Of a stretch of DNA of 64,000 bases, positions 3,514 to 57,573 are shown one piece after another. A program made the position numbers and the translations under genes. Source of the DNA: Escherichia coli (GTDB taxonomy: Bacteria; Pseudomonadota; Gammaproteobacteria; Enterobacterales; Enterobacteriaceae); assembly GCF_024700885.2 (NCBI RefSeq), contig NZ_CP117014.1. One strand, 5' to 3'. The notes under the pieces were generated by a model. The model was not told the DNA's origin. It ran no database searches and worked only from the letters and a program-made list of their open reading frames with translations. Each line of letters starts with the position of its first letter. Positions within the stretch are counted from its first letter, which is position 1.

Positions 3514-3562
3514 ACGCTATTTCTCCCAGGTAGAGGCCACCTTTGCAGACGGCCTATGTCAC

Positions 3563-4303
3563 TTACAAACCGCGTTTTTTGCGAATGCGCATTGATTTTT
3601 TGCGGTTGATATTCGCTACGGATGTATGTGCTTTGCGGCGTGCTTTTTTCAGCGCCTGTTTTTGCAATGACGTCATGCGGCGAGGACGCGGGCGTTTACG
3701 GATGATGGTTACCTTGCCATCACGAACCACTTTTTTACGTACCGCTTCCAGCATTGCGCTATCACCACCAGCAACGGTGTAAATGGCAATAGCTGTTTCC
3801 ATCATGTCGGTGTCGCTTTCGGAAAGAGCGTCATAAACACGTTCGGCAGCTGAGTCATCTTCATCGTCGATCATTTCGGTTACATCATCCTGATCAGCGC
3901 CAAGCGCAACAGCTGCATCAGCAAGAGCTGCGAGTGCATCGTTATAAGCATCGATTTGCTCATCGGTGAAATCGGTGTCTTCATCGATATCAGCCAGGCC
4001 AGCCATAGTGATTGCTAATGCATCAAATGAGTCAGCCTCCGGATCACCATCTTCAACCCAACCAGCAAGCATGGAAGCTGCCAGGCTGCGCATATCACCT
4101 TGTGCACGGGATTCAACCGCTTCCATCATCGCGGTTTCAATGTCGTCTTTGGGCTTTGGTTGAGTGTCCTTTCCTTTCTGTCCTGCGCTTTCCAGCATGG
4201 CGTTATCATTATTGTCCTGCGTGGATTTATCACCGCTTTCAAAGCAGCCAGAACCGAAAATCGCACGCATAAAAGGATCAGCAGTATAATTTTTCATATT
4301 CAA
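3563..4303 (-). CDS. Acidic virion protein with strongly basic C-terminal tail (246 aa)
   Basis: D/E-rich central region followed by K/R-rich C-terminus (KRPRPRR...RKKRGL); composition typical of internal or DNA-associated virion proteins. Confidence 0.35.
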   Translation of the reverse strand: MNMKNYTADPFMRAIFGSGCFESGDKSTQDNNDNAMLESAGQKGKDTQPKPKDDIETAMMEAVESRAQGDMRSLAASMLAGWVEDGDPEADSFDALAITMAGLADIDEDTDFTDEQIDAYNDALAALADAAVALGADQDDVTEMIDDEDDSAAERVYDALSESDTDMMETAIAIYTVAGGDSAMLEAVRKKVVRDGKVTIIRKRPRPRRMTSLQKQALKKARRKAHTSVANINRKKSMRIRKKRGL

Positions 4304-47163: not shown

Positions 47164-47604
47164 TCACTCCACAACAAACCAGTCACAGGCCAGCAGGTCG
47201 CCAACTGAAGGCACCCACGGAACAACTACACCTTGTGCATTTTTTAAGGCGAAATAAGCACCATACGGAACGAGGTCGCCGGGGAAATATCCCTTAATGG
47301 CTTCCATTCGTGCCGGGTACTGTCCTTCAGGAACCAGCCAGCAGAATTGGTTTTCGCCGTTCCACCCGCGTCGAGCAACTTTCTTGCCTTCCTTCAGCCA
47401 CATCAGCGCGTCTGAAAAGTCGGCTGCTTCAAGGTCGATTTCTTCTTGCTGGGTGGTGATGCCACCAGCAGAAATAGTTACGCTCCCGGTAAGATTAATC
47501 ATCACGCCGTTGTCATCCGTAATGATGACCGTGGTTCCATTTTTTTTGTGAGCTTTGTATTTGGGACGGAACTTAAAAAGCTCTTTCGTTGCCATGTTAT
47601 TCAT
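47164..47604 (-). CDS. DUF2829-like (Tad2-like) domain protein with N-terminal extension
   Basis: C-terminal half ...DALMWLKEGKKVARRGWNG...VGDLLACDWFVVE matches the DUF2829 pattern from memory. Confidence 0.5.
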   Translation of the reverse strand: MNNMATKELFKFRPKYKAHKKNGTTVIITDDNGVMINLTGSVTISAGGITTQQEEIDLEAADFSDALMWLKEGKKVARRGWNGENQFCWLVPEGQYPARMEAIKGYFPGDLVPYGAYFALKNAQGVVVPWVPSVGDLLACDWFVVE

Positions 47605-52997: not shown

Positions 52998-54361
52998 TAA
53001 TCATCCTCCGGCGGTTCTATCGCGATATCATCATCTCCGGCGTCATACCCTGCATCAGATGCATCATAATCACCGTAAATTTCAGCCGTTGCCGAAGGGT
53101 CAATATCCAGCTCTTCGTCGTTGGCCTCGAATTCTCCAGCTTTACGCTCGCCATTGCGGTCGTAATCTCCGCACCCCAATTCTTCAACAATGGTTGCCAC
53201 ATCCGCCCGGCGCTCTGCCAGCCATTGCGGATGGTTAGCCTGAAGCGTTGCAAACTCCCTTGCCTCTTTGTCCAGCTGTTCATCATCAACATCATTGACG
53301 TCAGAAACAGGTGGTTCGAGAAGAGTGATAGCTTTCGCCGCGCGCGCCGCGAGGATAGCCGGGACGCTGACACCCTGGCGCTCGATGTATTCAGCAACAC
53401 CGATATCATCCAGTTCCTCGCGCTCACGCATACGTATAGCGGCGGCGATAACTCTGGCTGCGCGTGCGTCAGCGCCAATGCGATATTCAATCTCTTTGCC
53501 ACGCTGTTCGGCCTGTAGGCGTGCTAATTCGAGTTTTTCTCTGGCCTCAGCCTCTTTGAATGCTTGCTGGCGAGCGCTCTGACGAAGCTTTTCATCCCCC
53601 TGTCGCAGCTTTTGTTCGGACTGATATATAGCTGCCAACCTACTGATAAAATCATTCATGTAGTAGGCCGCGTCACTGATTAGACCGAGAAGGCGCTGCC
53701 CAGGGTGCATTCCTTCTGGCTCTTTATCGCCCAAGGCGTCTATTTCCGCCTGTAGACGTTCGGCCTCCTGATCAACAATGCTTTGATACTGAAGTGCGCG
53801 CTCTTGCGCCATTTGAATTGCTAACCGCAGGTGTTCTTCTGCGCCGTTCTTCATCATATCGCGAGCCACATTCGTAGTTGGCAATGTGGCACGCTGCACA
53901 GCACCGTCAGGGATCATTGCAGAAGATCCCTCAATTTTTGGGGCGTTTTTATCTTCTTCGGGGATCATTTTCGCCATTTTTTCGCGCAATGATCTCCTGA
54001 CAGATTCTTTTATCTCATTGTTATTATTTGAATTATTTTCATGATCCGAAGTTTTCTTTCTCGGCATACTTCGGAAAGAACCTGCGCCCTGCGAATTGTC
54101 AATTTCTGTAAATTTTGTTTTTTCTGCACCCTCTTCCAGCTTTTTTGTTGCTCTTCCCGCCCGTTTTTTTTCAGGTGATTTGGTGCTTTTTTTTGTTGTC
54201 TTTACCTGCGACCGCACCTCATTTTTTTTCATATTGAGATGCTTTCTGGCTGTATTGAAGCTAAGGCCATGCTCCTCACAGTATTCCTTTACAGTGATCC
54301 CTTTTTCTTCACGCAACGCTATAAAGCGGGCGCGGTGCTCCTCCCAATTAACCAGACTCAT
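52997..54361 (-). CDS. pacA: Terminase small subunit (PacA-like) with N-terminal HTH
   Basis: N-terminal ...KEYCEEHGLSFNTARKHL HTH; acidic C-terminus; internal GATC cluster. Confidence 0.7.
   Translation of the reverse strand: MSLVNWEEHRARFIALREEKGITVKEYCEEHGLSFNTARKHLNMKKNEVRSQVKTTKKSTKSPEKKRAGRATKKLEEGAEKTKFTEIDNSQGAGSFRSMPRKKTSDHENNSNNNNEIKESVRRSLREKMAKMIPEEDKNAPKIEGSSAMIPDGAVQRATLPTTNVARDMMKNGAEEHLRLAIQMAQERALQYQSIVDQEAERLQAEIDALGDKEPEGMHPGQRLLGLISDAAYYMNDFISRLAAIYQSEQKLRQGDEKLRQSARQQAFKEAEAREKLELARLQAEQRGKEIEYRIGADARAARVIAAAIRMREREELDDIGVAEYIERQGVSVPAILAARAAKAITLLEPPVSDVNDVDDEQLDKEAREFATLQANHPQWLAERRADVATIVEELGCGDYDRNGERKAGEFEANDEELDIDPSATAEIYGDYDASDAGYDAGDDDIAIEPPEDD
53912..54046. other. 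Candidate pac site: cluster of five GATC (Dam) sites within pacA
   Basis: GATC at 53912, 53925, 53963, 53991, 54043 (~0.5 expected by chance); GGGATCATT duplicated. Confidence 0.4.
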
Positions 54362-54750
54362 AAAGCAACACCACGCTTTTTAACGGCGGCATTCCACAGC
54401 TTATTCGCCATGTCCACCAGCTCTCGTTGCTCTTTTCGCGCCTGTTCGACTGATTTCCTGCTACAGTTTTTAACCAGTAAACTGCCATATTCAGGGGTTC
54501 GCCCACGCACCTTGAACTGATATCCGTTCAGGCCATGCAACCAGTATTTTCGTGGGTAAACACGATCATCAAGCTCACAGATTGCCCTGCTTGAACGAAC
54601 AAAATGACGAATGATGTTAGTTACACTTACTCGTGAAACATGGAGATGAGGGTATTTTTCTTTGGCGAGAGTGGTAATTTCAGTGACTGTCAGATAGCAG
54701 TCAGCCCTGATCATGATATCCGCAATTTCTGCGCTGCTGATTTGTTCCAT
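54358..54750 (-). CDS. Small protein immediately upstream of pacA (Lpa-position gene; putative late activator)
   Basis: 130 aa, 4-nt overlap with pacA start; assignment by synteny with P1 lpa only. Confidence 0.4.
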   Translation of the reverse strand: MEQISSAEIADIMIRADCYLTVTEITTLAKEKYPHLHVSRVSVTNIIRHFVRSSRAICELDDRVYPRKYWLHGLNGYQFKVRGRTPEYGSLLVKNCSRKSVEQARKEQRELVDMANKLWNAAVKKRGVAL

Positions 54751-54858
54751 TAATCCCCCGGGCAGGAAATGACCGAGGGGATGATAATGAGAATGTTAAA
54801 ACTGTATAGACTGGTAAAAAGATGAATGTATTAGAAAATTAATACTAAATATCTAATG

Positions 54859-55251
54859 CTACCAGCTAGACAAACGAACAACATGTTTCACTTTTGCGAT
54901 CCACTGTCCGCGATAACTATTGATTACGGCCTGTGCCAGCTTCAAATTGGCTTCAAAATCAGCCTTACTACCATCAGACTCCACCAGCATTCCTCCATCT
55001 ATTTCTGGTAAACATAGATAATCCTGCTCAACCTGCAGCGGCATTGATGGCTCTCTGAATGGGGTTACTTGCTCTGCTTTCCAGCGAAATCTAACCCTTA
55101 TCCCCCTGGTGGTCATTACTAGATAGCCTGTTATAGTGCTTTTATGGCCCACATCAGTACGCGTGGCATTGCATGACTCGATCTTACAGTTAGCGATAGA
55201 CCACTCCATATTGGTGGCCTGTTGAGTGCTTAATTTGGTAGTCCCGTACAT
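54859..55251 (-). CDS. Hypothetical protein (130 aa)
   Basis: ORF, stop/start coupled to upstream gene. Confidence 0.4.
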   Translation of the reverse strand: MYGTTKLSTQQATNMEWSIANCKIESCNATRTDVGHKSTITGYLVMTTRGIRVRFRWKAEQVTPFREPSMPLQVEQDYLCLPEIDGGMLVESDGSKADFEANLKLAQAVINSYRGQWIAKVKHVVRLSSW

Positions 55252-55826
55252 CAGAAAGCCTCCCAGTCAGTCGCGATAATATCCACACCAGTTGCAAACC
55301 AGTCTGTCTGCGCCTGTAAATCCCCATTCATCATTACCAGGCGAGGCATCACCATCACATCGCACCCTTCCACAATATCGAATGCCTCTTCCGGCAAGAA
55401 TTCGAAGAGCTTTTCTTTGCTGCCAATACTGCCACGGAACATCGATATATAGCTCCCTTTGGGCCATGATGTCCGCCGGGCATCAAGCCCTTTCATCATC
55501 CAGTAAAAAGCCGAGGAAAAAGGGATATTCTTTTTGCCAATGATTACATTATTCGCTTCTGTGTATTTCAGGAACTTAACTAACCTTACCATTGACTCGG
55601 ATAACGCAACGTATGGCTCATGATTGATTGCTGACACGCTTACACCGTGCAATCCAACGCTTACCACTGTCATATCGCCGCTCTGTGCGGTTTCGATATT
55701 GACGCCTTTGCGAACTAATGAGGCGTAAATTTCCTCTCGCTTTTGGGTCCAGCGTTCACGCTTCCCTATGAAGTCACTCAAAATGAGATCTTCTTCTGTA
55801 TATGCGTTATCGTTCGCCATTAACAT
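55251..55826 (-). CDS. Hypothetical protein with DUF2829-like C-terminal region (191 aa)
   Basis: ...FYWMMKGLDARRTSWPKGSYI...VDIIATDWEAF resembles the G-K-x-x-R-x-x-W and D-l-l-A-x-D-W pattern of 47164 protein. Confidence 0.35.
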   Translation of the reverse strand: MLMANDNAYTEEDLILSDFIGKRERWTQKREEIYASLVRKGVNIETAQSGDMTVVSVGLHGVSVSAINHEPYVALSESMVRLVKFLKYTEANNVIIGKKNIPFSSAFYWMMKGLDARRTSWPKGSYISMFRGSIGSKEKLFEFLPEEAFDIVEGCDVMVMPRLVMMNGDLQAQTDWFATGVDIIATDWEAF

Positions 55827-56278
55827 AACGTTTCCTTTTTTACACGCGCGACTATCCCCCGGAAGTACCGGTAGTGATGTCGTAACTTCGTATTAATTAA
55901 GGGGTACAGCCTGAGCGGCTATATGATGAATTGAAAGGAGTTGTGGCGGTGGTGCCTCCACCTGCCAGGTTAGCCACTCCTGGCGACGTCACTTATCAGA
56001 ACGTAGTGAATGAAAATGGCTTCGTCACGAGCGCATAGCCGCAATTACCACAACGGAAACGGCGCTCACGCTAATTAAACGCCTTTTCCTGTTGTGCGCC
56101 GTGCTCTTCCGGCTGTCACACCGAATCGCCAGGATGGTGAATCCGCAGTCCGACGCTATGAACGGGGCTTGCACATTCCGGCTACCTGGTGTGCCCATGC
56201 AGTGTTAGTAAAAGGTACCTAACAGCTACACCAGACCGCTAACGACGCATGTGCCATACGCCGTGTTACAACCAAATG

Positions 56279-56354
56279 TGGTGGCCCCTACCGGACTTGA
56301 ACCGGTGACCGTGCGATTATGAGTCGCCCGCTCTAACCACTGAGCTAAAGGGCC
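56279..56354 (-). tRNA. tRNA with CAU anticodon (Ile2/Met-type)
   Basis: Reverse complement gives 76-nt cloverleaf ending CCA, anticodon loop CTCATAA; very similar to E. coli ileX from memory. Confidence 0.8.
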
Positions 56355-56783
56355 AGATTACTGTTAATTACGCTTACGCTTTTTGCCAGAACCGCGTAAG
56401 GCTTTTGCCGCTTGCTCTACCCCGTATGCAACCACCAGCAGAAACAATAATGTCCACTCCGGGTTTTTATCGGCAAACGCCCAAAAATCCATCACTTGCA
56501 GCCACCTTTTAAGACAAAACGCCATTGCTGTTAGGTTGCGGTGCCGGGCGCCTCCCGGTGACGTTAACCAGTTAACAATTAACGCCGGATCACTTATGGA
56601 TTCTCGTTACGCCAGTAAAAAGACCACCTTTACTGTTTTAACTGTTCCGCGTGCGCTTAGCCGCATTCACCGCAATGGTAAGAGCATTTGGCTGACTGGG
56701 CGGCGATGACGCCTGTACGCATTTGGTGATCCGGTTCTGCTTCCGGCATTCGCTTAATTAGCCAAATACCCTTAATGTTGCAC

Positions 56784-56870
56784 TGGCGGAGAGTAATGGA
56801 ATCGAACCATCATCGCTTGCGCAATGGGACGGTTTTCAAGACCGCTTGAGCACCATGCTCCCTACTCTCC
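56784..56870 (-). tRNA. tRNA-Ser (UGA), type II with long variable arm
   Basis: 87 nt, acceptor GGAGAGT/ACTCTCC, anticodon stem GCGGT/ACCGT, loop CTTGAAA, T-loop TTCGATT, 3' GCCA. Confidence 0.7.
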
Positions 56871-57324
56871 CGTTATTGTGGCGACCGGTGCTGATCTCCG
56901 GCTTGCGGTTATTTCAGACTCTCACGGGCGTTTAATTGCCCCGCCGAACAGCTCTTTTCCGCAATAGCTGCAATGTCTTTCGCGCATCAGCCTGCGCATT
57001 CACCACAATGTTGAGAACACTGGTTGTCACGCTGCAACGCAACATTTATTCGTAGATTGGGATATGACCCCGTTACGCCAGTGTTCTCAACGTTGTAGTG
57101 CCGGTTACGGTTCCGGCCAGACCTCTTCCTCAACGGGGTGTTCTCCATACGGACTACCGTTTATTGGTCGTTCCTGCGGTTTATGTTGTGAAGCCAGATG
57201 CTTATCTTCTGGTTGCTTCAAAGAGCTGCACTTCATCACAACGGTAAGAGCATTTATGGCTCGCATCGCGGGAAAAAGCCCACGGTAGAGAGTCGAACTC
57301 TACAAATGCTCTTACCTGTTGTGT

Positions 57325-57400
57325 TGGTGCCGGTTAACGGGATCGAACCGCTGACCATTCGCTTACAAAGCGACTGCTCTACCAACTGAGCTAAACCGGC
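57325..57400 (-). tRNA. tRNA-Thr (UGU)
   Basis: 76 nt, acceptor GCCGGTT/AACCGGC, D-arm GCTCAGTTGGTAGAGC, loop TTTGTAA, T-loop TTCGATC, CCA. Confidence 0.8.
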
Positions 57401-57404
57401 AATT

Positions 57405-57491
57405 TGGTGGGGAGTGATGGAGTCGAACCACCCGAGTCGCAATGACAGTAGATTTACAGTCTACCCCGCTACCCCTACGGACTAACTCCCC
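57405..57491 (-). tRNA. tRNA-Tyr (GUA), type II
   Basis: 87 nt, acceptor GGGGAGT/ACTCCCC, anticodon stem GTAGA/TCTAC, loop CTGTAAA, CCA. Confidence 0.75.
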
Positions 57492-57496
57492 TAAAT

Positions 57497-57573
57497 TGGC
57501 GATGGTGGGTGGATTCGAACCACCTACCGAAAGCTTAGAAGGCTGCTGTTCTATCCTACTGAGCTACACCATC
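57497..57573 (-). tRNA. tRNA-Arg (UCU)-like
   Basis: 77 nt, acceptor GATGGTG/CACCATC, loop CTTCTAA as in E. coli argU, T-arm GGTGG-TTCGAAT-CCACC, CCA; one mismatch in anticodon stem. Confidence 0.6.

Follow-up and report, generated by a model that had tools for sequence, protein, structure and literature searches.

A divergent Tad2-like domain in the two-domain, short-loop orf6 protein of a D6-like phage-plasmid from Escherichia coli

Tad2 proteins (PF11195/DUF2829) constitute a known anti-defence family of phage sponges, which take up signal molecules of bacterial immunity. They assemble through helix alpha1 into homotetramers with ligand pockets between the protomers. In SPO1 Tad2, gcADPR is contacted by W25, N26, W73, S76, T78, and D79, and in HgmTad2 by W21, N22, G23, W87, L88, S90, T92, and D93. 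Of these residues, W25 and N26 of SPO1 Tad2 and W21, N22, and G23 of HgmTad2 are loop residues that touch the ligand, W-N-G-K-G being a phosphate-binding loop. Function within the wider group of sponges has been surveyed by assaying 84 sponge homologues against seven systems (Hadary et al., 2025; 10.1101/2025.08.24.671296). About a quarter of these homologues (19 of 84), Tad2_69 included, inhibited none of the seven systems, while Tad2_79, which has a KWSKD loop, was active against type I and type IV Thoeris (10.1101/2025.08.24.671296). Fusions of Tad2 with further sponge domains, such as Acb4 and Sequestin (PF21825), are frequent, and the fusion partners can be new sponges (10.1101/2025.07.12.664507).

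The window analyzed here, a stretch of 64,000 nucleotides of E. coli contig NZ_CP117014.1, represents a D6-like P1-family phage-plasmid; around the gene under study, it shares 97% identity with Escherichia phage D6. The counterpart of this gene in D6 is orf6 (D6_6, annotated as 'hypothetical protein'), whose product shows 99% amino-acid identity, and a protein encoded on E. coli plasmid NZ_CP035876 is 100% identical to the orf6 product. The family phrog_7362 matches the product along its full length. The element carries a further Tad2-like gene, which is referred to below as the 47164 gene and was used for comparison. The relevant features are as follows.

47164..47604, (-) strand: first, canonical Tad2-like gene of the element, 146 aa (comparison protein; ORF list; PF11195, 81.6 bits)
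54358..54750, (-) strand: lpa, late promoter activator (D6 annotation; BPP1_LPA Pfam family in related loci)
54825..54840, (-) strand: putative C1 operator of the D6 type in the orf5-lpa interval, at the place of Olpa in P1 (motif count; P1 Olpa/Plpa annotation)
54859..55251, (-) strand: orf5, 130 aa, whose start overlaps the orf6 stop (TGATG; ORF list)
55251..55826, (-) strand: two-domain Tad2-like gene orf6, 191 aa plus stop (stop codon 55251-55253; ORF list)
55254..55532, (-) strand: C-terminal Tad2-like (PF11195/DUF2829) domain of the orf6 product, aa ~99-191
55263..55301, (-) strand: pocket/core motif W176-F-A-T-G-V-D182-I-I-A-T-D187-W188 (per-column conservation and alignment to tested Tad2 proteins)
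55455..55466, (-) strand: loop between strands beta1 and beta2, W121-P122-K123-G124 (alignments)
55551..55799, (-) strand: N-terminal domain of the orf6 product, aa ~10-92 (predicted fold)
55833..55836, (-) strand: ribosome-binding site AGGA, 6 nt 5' of the orf6 ATG (read from the sequence)

orf6 is a real, functional, and constrained gene. Both of its domains are under purifying selection, with dN/dS values of 0.095-0.13 against other alleles (~91% alleles) and of about 0.10 in each domain. The gene was found in 124 plasmid records, from Escherichia, Salmonella, and Shigella as well as Pantoea and Enterobacter, and also in phage D6. Copies in shortened form exist (P0006, P0007, P0009, P0015, and P0026), as expected of a dispensable accessory gene. 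The two-domain family to which orf6 belongs is rare: among 1.84 billion representatives, about a dozen 50%-identity clusters matched over most of their length.

A preliminary description of this DNA had drawn attention to two signature segments shared with the 47164 protein. Both are present in the orf6 reading frame, FYWMMKGLDARRTSWPKGSYI at aa 107-127 and VDIIATDWEAF at aa 181-191, the C-terminal end. The two segments alone would not prove relatedness, because pairwise BLASTP of the orf6 and 47164 proteins was not significant (E 0.084). A single-sequence phmmer search of the orf6 product against the PDB returned only chance matches to malate dehydrogenase. Since both the BLASTP comparison and the single-sequence phmmer search were uninformative, profiles were needed. 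PF11195 (Tad2-like; gathering score 25) matched aa 103-190 of the orf6 product with an E-value of 9.5e-10 and 39.3 bits, the match spanning profile positions 3-72 of 73, in agreement with the DUF2829-like C-terminus proposed earlier. Also as described before, this match was weaker than that of the 47164 protein (39.3 versus 81.6 bits), for which phmmer in addition identified ModTad2 (9eib) with an E-value of 8e-21. All full-length relatives of the orf6 product (13 of 13) were matched by PF11195.

For the profile-profile comparison that had been suggested as a check, a full-length alignment of the orf6 family (A3), obtained by an exhaustive HMMER search of 1.84 billion representatives and supplemented with a Pantoea plasmid homologue, was compared by hhalign with homologues of the 47164 protein that had been gathered and aligned separately (A5). 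The two profiles aligned with a probability of 97.5% and an E-value of 7.6e-12 over 90 columns, and the alignment covered the C-terminal domains only. When the orf6 family profile was searched against the PDB, all seven distinct Tad2/AcrIIA7 chain sequences were returned, with E-values of 2.4e-6 to 3.2e-5. Structural similarity, likewise suggested as a check, was found with an AlphaFold2 model of the orf6 product, for which Foldseek gave a probability of 1.0 against 9eib, 8wjd, 8kbi, and 8smf; a search of BFVD with the same model matched many viral models named 'Thoeris anti-defense 2-like'. This model, built from a 77-row alignment, replaced one based on only 6 close sequences (pLDDT 44). Its pLDDT of 92.3 and pTM of 0.62 agree with two domains that are each folded with confidence and whose predicted relative orientation is less certain. 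The C-terminal ~93 aa of orf6 are thus securely assigned to the Tad2 family (PF11195/DUF2829), of which they are a genuine, divergent representative. Profile and structural similarity, whose absence would have told against the earlier proposal, were both found.

The first ~85 aa make up a second domain, of alpha/beta type and specific to this family. It bears no relation to the 57 aa at the N-terminus of the 47164 protein, as the preliminary description had stated: hhalign produced no alignment of the two regions, no Pfam family was common to them, and their predicted folds differed in kind. AlphaFold2 predicted, for residues ~10-92 of orf6, a helix followed by a helix-strand-strand-strand-long helix arrangement, so that the predicted structure shows the alpha-beta-beta-beta-alpha order of a dsRBD-like fold. 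Pfam gave no match to the N-domain, dsrm included, at E-values up to 10. Manual inspection moreover revealed none of the dsRBD RNA-contact motifs, namely polar residues in helix 1, a GPxH loop, and KKxAK at the N-terminus of helix 2; in orf6, helix 2 starts with EPYVALSES, without a basic cluster. The N-domain therefore resembles a dsRBD in fold only and is not a member of that sequence family. A BFVD fold search with orf6 also matched 'phage ABA sandwich domain' proteins. This likeness, as well as that to the phage ABA sandwich protein of PDB entry 1r7l, is one of fold only, and 1r7l itself has no known function; a literature search for 'ABA sandwich' and 1R7L found nothing relevant. Conserved positions of the N-domain are Gly, Ala, and hydrophobic residues, together with an aromatic residue at position 26 and Lys/Arg at position 81. 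Among the matches listed in the exhaustive search of 1.84 billion representatives, the domain was seen only in full-length members of the orf6 family or their shortened forms, and stand-alone copies were not found.

In alignments with proteins of known structure, both pocket tryptophans and the pocket aspartate were kept in orf6, with W121, W176, and D182 corresponding to W25, W73, and D79 of SPO1 Tad2 and to W21, W87, and D93 of HgmTad2, while the pocket serine was replaced by T179. The loop reads S-W-P-K-G instead of the canonical G-W-N-G-K-G; one residue is missing, and the Asn of WNG, a phosphate contact, is replaced by P122. Similarly, the canonical C-terminal motif W-L-A-S-Q-T-D-M-L-A-E-D-W reads W-F-A-T-G-V-D-I-I-A-T-D-W, which places V181 at the position of the Thr that contacts adenine. 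Per-column conservation showed that W121, W176, R118, G113, D187, and W188 are invariant across the orf6 family and that D182 is kept in 9 of the 13 members; the residue after W121 and the positions equivalent to S90 and T92 vary. Residues R31, S47, F70, and N85 of the HgmTad2 cyclic-dinucleotide site appear unconserved in orf6, according to an approximate, hand-read mapping of the alignment. The short 'W-P/A/D-x-G' loop is not confined to the orf6 family, as some stand-alone Tad2-like proteins, a minority, have it too. An interpretation of the orf6 pocket as dead was dropped because tested homologues without WNG are active. Since Tad2_72 and Tad2_79 both lack WNG and inhibit Thoeris, its absence neither proves nor disproves activity.

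The closest tested relative of the orf6 C-domain is Tad2_69 (29% identity; SWPQG loop), which was inactive on all seven systems (Table S2). Next closest is Tad2_72 (26% identity; AWPKN loop), which was active against type I Thoeris in a plaque assay (Table S2). Because one of these proteins is inactive and the other blocks type I Thoeris, they give no consistent functional prediction for orf6. The C-domain of the 47164 protein shows 68% identity with Tad2_68, which is active against type II and type I Thoeris (Table S2), and 46% identity with MoTad2, which sequesters His-ADPR and cUMP/cCMP. Neither the orf6 nor the 47164 sequence string occurs in the accessible part of the supplementary tables of Hadary et al. 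(2025). Fusions of Sequestin (PF21825) to Tad2 were found among close relatives of the 47164 gene.

Downstream of orf6 in D6, the genes orf5, lpa, pacA, and pacB follow on one strand, with c1 divergent beyond. Members of the orf6 family occupy the position immediately upstream of lpa-pacA-pacB, again with divergent c1 beyond, in all five loci for which downstream sequence was available (D6, L004, L007, L009, and the Pantoea locus L002). Phage P1 has phd-doc-pdcA-pdcB in this position, which can therefore be regarded as an accessory slot whose content varies among P1-like elements. In the Enterobacteriaceae D6-like plasmids, orf6 is always followed by orf5, which was found in 118 plasmid records with genus counts equal to those of the Enterobacteriaceae matches of orf6. 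Elsewhere in the family, L005 has a homologue of orf6 (36% identity) with a homologue of orf5 (29% identity) behind it, and a 130-aa gene lies directly downstream of the orf6 homologue in L007. L004, L002, and L009 have no orf5; in L014, a plasmid of E. marmotae, the annotation shows no more than a CDS of 186 nt where orf5 would be expected. The 130-aa orf5 product had no match in Pfam, PADLOC, NCBIfam, or the PDB, and PADLOC and NCBIfam were negative for the orf6 product as well. In other lineages, a small basic-tailed ORF is instead located upstream of the orf6 family gene.

Expression signals were sought by motif, promoter, and terminator scans. A candidate motif for the D6-type C1 operator occurs 5 times in the window, where 1.06 sites would be expected; one of these is located upstream of lpa, beside a sigma-70-like promoter (54808-54781) found by the promoter scan, and none lies directly upstream of orf6. 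The P1 C1 operator consensus ATTGCTCTAATAAATTT had no match within 3 mismatches. Sites reported by the promoter and terminator scans were no more numerous than in shuffled sequence, and these scans gave no convincing promoter directly upstream of orf6. The sequence AAGTTACGA, upstream of orf6, was considered as a P1 late promoter (7 of 9 positions of the -22 box) and dropped for want of a usable -10.

Judged from its sequence relationships, orf6 probably encodes an anti-defence signal sponge of distinct specificity, a proposal to which we give modest preference. Its C-domain would oligomerise and form inter-subunit pockets, as in characterised Tad2 proteins, and these pockets would capture an immune second messenger derived from a nucleotide (cADPR, His-ADPR, or cyclic-nucleotide class). 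A defence that signals and acts by abortive infection (Thoeris-, CBASS-, or Pycsar-like) would thereby be weakened at infection or upon induction of the element, and the N-domain would most likely add oligomerisation or a second binding function. Observations in favour of a sponge are the homology and fold of the C-domain, the invariant or mostly kept pocket residues, the purifying selection, the phage-plasmid context and position upstream of lpa, the presence of a second Tad2-like gene of another sub-type, the documented Tad2 fusions, and the activity of homologues lacking WNG; those against it are the replacement of the WNG Asn by Pro and of the adenine-contacting Thr by Val, the variation at the S90 and T92 equivalents, the apparent loss of the cyclic-dinucleotide site, the want of a convincing promoter or C1-type operator directly upstream, the N-terminal extension unlike those of characterised Tad2 sponges, and the failure of Tad2_69, the closest tested relative, to inhibit any of seven systems.

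The occurrence of two divergent Tad2-like genes in one element, to which the preliminary description had pointed, also holds for phage D6, and at least four plasmid records carry both genes among the matches listed in both searches. The two genes belong to different sub-types, the 47164 gene lying near Tad2_68 and MoTad2 and orf6 in the short-loop 'W-P-x-G' sub-type. The 47164 protein appears, by these similarities, to resemble type II Thoeris/His-ADPR sponges. The specificity of orf6 is probably unlike that of the 47164 protein, because the pocket Trp pair and Asp are kept but the loop is shortened to W-P-K-G. The earlier interpretation is thereby supported in part: its Tad2 C-domain, unrelated N-terminus, and two gene copies stand, while its further suggestion that the copies serve different ligands or hosts stays conjectural, and would fit their different functional neighbourhoods.

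Retention of the Tad2-like fold does not by itself imply a sponge. The function could have been lost or changed, with orf6 acting by protein or nucleic-acid contacts through a functional dsRBD-like N-domain and the degenerate Tad2 domain serving as scaffold or oligomeriser; it might, for instance, inhibit a defence protein by direct contact or regulate some process of the phage or host. Loss of the canonical WNG loop, variable S/T pocket positions, the inactivity of Tad2_69 on seven systems, and an N-domain constrained as much as the C-domain are all in line with this explanation. However, a Trp pair and Asp that are invariant or nearly so are not expected of a mere scaffold, the N-domain has neither the KKxAK and GPxH motifs of dsRBDs (manual inspection) nor a Pfam dsrm match, and its conserved Gly, Ala, and hydrophobic residues are typical of a structural core; we consider a non-sponge role rather unlikely. 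By analogy with Acb4-Tad2 and Sequestin-Tad2, the N-domain might alternatively be an unrecognised signal-binding module, in which case a single protein would neutralise two immune signals. Published Tad2-fused domains are themselves sponges and such fusions predict new sponge families (10.1101/2025.07.12.664507), Sequestin-Tad2 fusions occur among close relatives of the 47164 gene of this element, and the N-domain is predicted with confidence as a compact fold, is conserved, and is restricted to phages. Against a dual sponge, the N-domain was not found to stand alone, whereas most Sequestin (PF21825) proteins do; a conserved cluster of charged or aromatic residues is lacking, the exceptions being the aromatic residue at 26 and Lys/Arg at 81, and the domain has no Pfam similarity to Acb4, Sequestin, Tad1, or Acb2. 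This arrangement is accordingly placed among the improbable ones. An equally doubtful extension of the preferred sponge proposal is that the N-domain is a new module binding an immune signal or a defence protein, which would make orf6 a dual anti-defence protein against a signal outside the cover of known sponges; its short-loop pocket might also bind the messenger of an undescribed defence system.

The location of orf6-orf5 in the position of phd-doc-pdcAB of P1 raises the question whether the pair is a toxin-antitoxin (TA), addiction, or defence cassette that replaces phd-doc. The overlap of the two genes (TGATG), their matching sets of Enterobacteriaceae plasmids (118 records, equal genus counts), and the name 'MW1434 family type I TA system toxin' that PGAP gives to several alleles would agree with such a cassette. 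This label, however, can be traced to a list compiled by bioinformatics, in which an 81-aa protein of an S. aureus prophage appears (PMC6266405), and Tad2 structures and biochemistry now contradict it. With 191 aa, two globular domains, and no obvious hydrophobic stretch, the orf6 product is unlike a type I toxin; no Rfam RNA family was found within or antisense to orf6 and orf5, and no TA or defence model was matched in Pfam, NCBIfam, or PADLOC. A small hydrophobic toxic peptide with an RNA antitoxin and a curated-model match, as in type I systems, is thus not what orf6 presents, nor is orf6-orf5 an obligate pair homologous to known toxins and antitoxins, as in type II systems: orf6 is kept without orf5 in L004, L002, and L009, and next to only a short CDS in the E. 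marmotae plasmid. A TA or related cassette is therefore regarded as very improbable. An anti-CRISPR (AcrIIA7-like) role was considered and dropped, as AcrIIA7 is HgmTad2, which has now been shown to be a sponge; in addition, E. coli is not known to have type II CRISPR.

E. coli, Salmonella, and Shigella commonly carry phage-plasmids of the P1/D6 type, whose spread is affected by the way in which they evade signalling-based immunity. The element studied here amounts to a natural experiment on specificity, with one gene near the type II Thoeris sponges and one of a rare two-domain, short-loop form. Sponge proteins have repeatedly served to fish out unknown immune messengers, and Tad2-fused domains have become new sponge families; because of these precedents, orf6 is a cheap and well-defined candidate for finding a new ligand and a new binding domain. 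Should it prove to be just another cADPR sponge, little beyond annotation would be gained, yet the labels 'hypothetical protein' and 'type I TA toxin' would still be corrected.

Like SPO1 Tad2, HgmTad2/AcrIIA7, ModTad2, and SptTad2, orf6 is encoded on a phage or mobile element. Features of the Tad2 family retained in it are both pocket Trp residues, the pocket Asp, the Arg that precedes the loop, and the C-terminal D-W, as well as the insertion 'G..(V/L)P..F...MPR' that is found in many members. Unlike known Tad2 proteins, it has an added, unrelated alpha/beta domain of ~90 aa at its N-terminus, its loop is one residue shorter and lacks the diphosphate-contacting Asn-Gly, Val takes the place of Thr at the adenine contact, and, as far as a hand-read mapping can tell, the cyclic-dinucleotide site of HgmTad2 is unconserved. 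Among tested proteins, Tad2_69 and Tad2_72 share with orf6 the short W-P-x-G/N loop, and Tad2_69 also shares the C-terminus 'A-T-x-x-D-(L/I)-(L/I)-A-x-D-W', but these two are single-domain proteins of 80 and 108 aa, whereas orf6 has two domains. Every characterised Tad2 sponge is either a small protein of one domain or has an extension other than that of orf6. In joining a Tad2 domain to a second small, phage-specific domain, orf6 is similar in design to the Acb4-Tad2 and Sequestin-Tad2 proteins (Tal et al., 2025), from which it differs in that its N-domain has no Pfam match, is alpha/beta rather than all-helical, and is not known to stand alone. What is new is this two-domain, short-loop variant, and what is known is the Tad2 anti-defence family to which it belongs.

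The N-terminus of the canonical Tad2-like protein of the element, which is encoded with a dUTPase-like ORF directly upstream, appears to be swappable.

47164-47604, minus strand: Tad2-like gene, 146 aa
47619-48113, minus strand: dUTPase-like ORF, directly upstream of the Tad2-like gene

The majority of its close homologues were 216-233 aa long, and their match was restricted to residues 21-146 of the 146-aa protein. Among its relatives, P0195, P0197, and P0198 were fusions of Sequestin (PF21825) and Tad2, and a single protein, P0187 (241 aa), was a dUTPase-Tad2 fusion. The C-domain showed 68% identity to the experimentally active homologue Tad2_68. Database labels assigned by PGAP to alleles of orf6, the two-domain Tad2-like gene of the element, were mixed (e.g., on plasmids NZ_CP026816 and NZ_CP045723) and read either 'MW1434 family type I TA system toxin' or 'hypothetical protein'. 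The former label goes back to a list of S. aureus prophage genes compiled by bioinformatics, and Tad2-like proteins are probably misnamed by it.

The gene that overlaps the orf6 stop, orf5, evolves away faster than its partner: its alleles were 66-75% identical where those of orf6 were approximately 91% identical. In the E. marmotae plasmid (L014), the annotation at the expected place of orf5 consisted of a short CDS only. In lineages without orf5, an ORF of 80-91 aa, with a Pro-rich middle and a strongly basic C-terminal tail (RKKRKQRKKKR...), instead preceded the Tad2-like gene and touched or overlapped its start.

54859-55251, minus strand: orf5, 130 aa, without known family
L002 (Pantoea), 3549-3797: small ORF before Tad2-like gene
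L008, 681-935: small ORF before Tad2-like gene
L006, 4109-4351: small ORF before Tad2-like gene
L009, 3096-3371: small ORF before Tad2-like gene

On the other side of orf6, a tRNA cluster and a conserved stretch were found.

56279-57573, minus strand: cluster of five tRNAs (Met-CAT, Ser-TGA, Thr, Tyr, Arg-TCT)
56279-56354, minus strand: tRNA-Met(CAT)
56069-56365, minus strand: tRNA-Met(CAT) with conserved downstream stretch
56083-56061: terminator-like hairpin
56537-56674, minus strand: partial, sub-threshold Rfam match to STnc100 sRNA (39.1 bits vs gathering score 47, E 3.8e-6)

In an S. dysenteriae plasmid, tRNA-Met(CAT) and approximately 200 bp downstream were 94% conserved, as compared to approximately 75% for flanking genes; the RNA fold z-score of the stretch was only -1.8. 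The long-armed Ser-TGA tRNA gave a tRNA-Sec-like score below threshold.

Motif scans of the window yielded five sites for AATTTTCTAATACATT (≤3 mismatches) vs 1.06 expected, and no match to the P1 C1 operator consensus.

54825-54840, minus strand: AATTTTCTAATACATT copy between orf5 and lpa, the late promoter activator gene
35671, 48982, 58795, 60044: remaining copies

The copy at 54825-54840, which adjoins a sigma-70-like promoter (54808-54781), lies at the position of the C1 operator Olpa in P1 and is a candidate operator of a D6-type C1 repressor.

Similarity to P1 was seen at positions 56095-56300 (3' part of tRNA-Met and approximately 185 bp downstream), which were 81% identical to a P1 segment that spans trnI (annotated as tRNA-Ile2, CAT) and the first part of the spacer leading to ban. 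The D6 record annotates tRNAs Ser, Thr, and Asn, with tciA/tciB between orf6 and the tRNAs. In the window, no complete tciA ORF seems to be present. Close relatives thus appear to differ in their tRNA and tci content.
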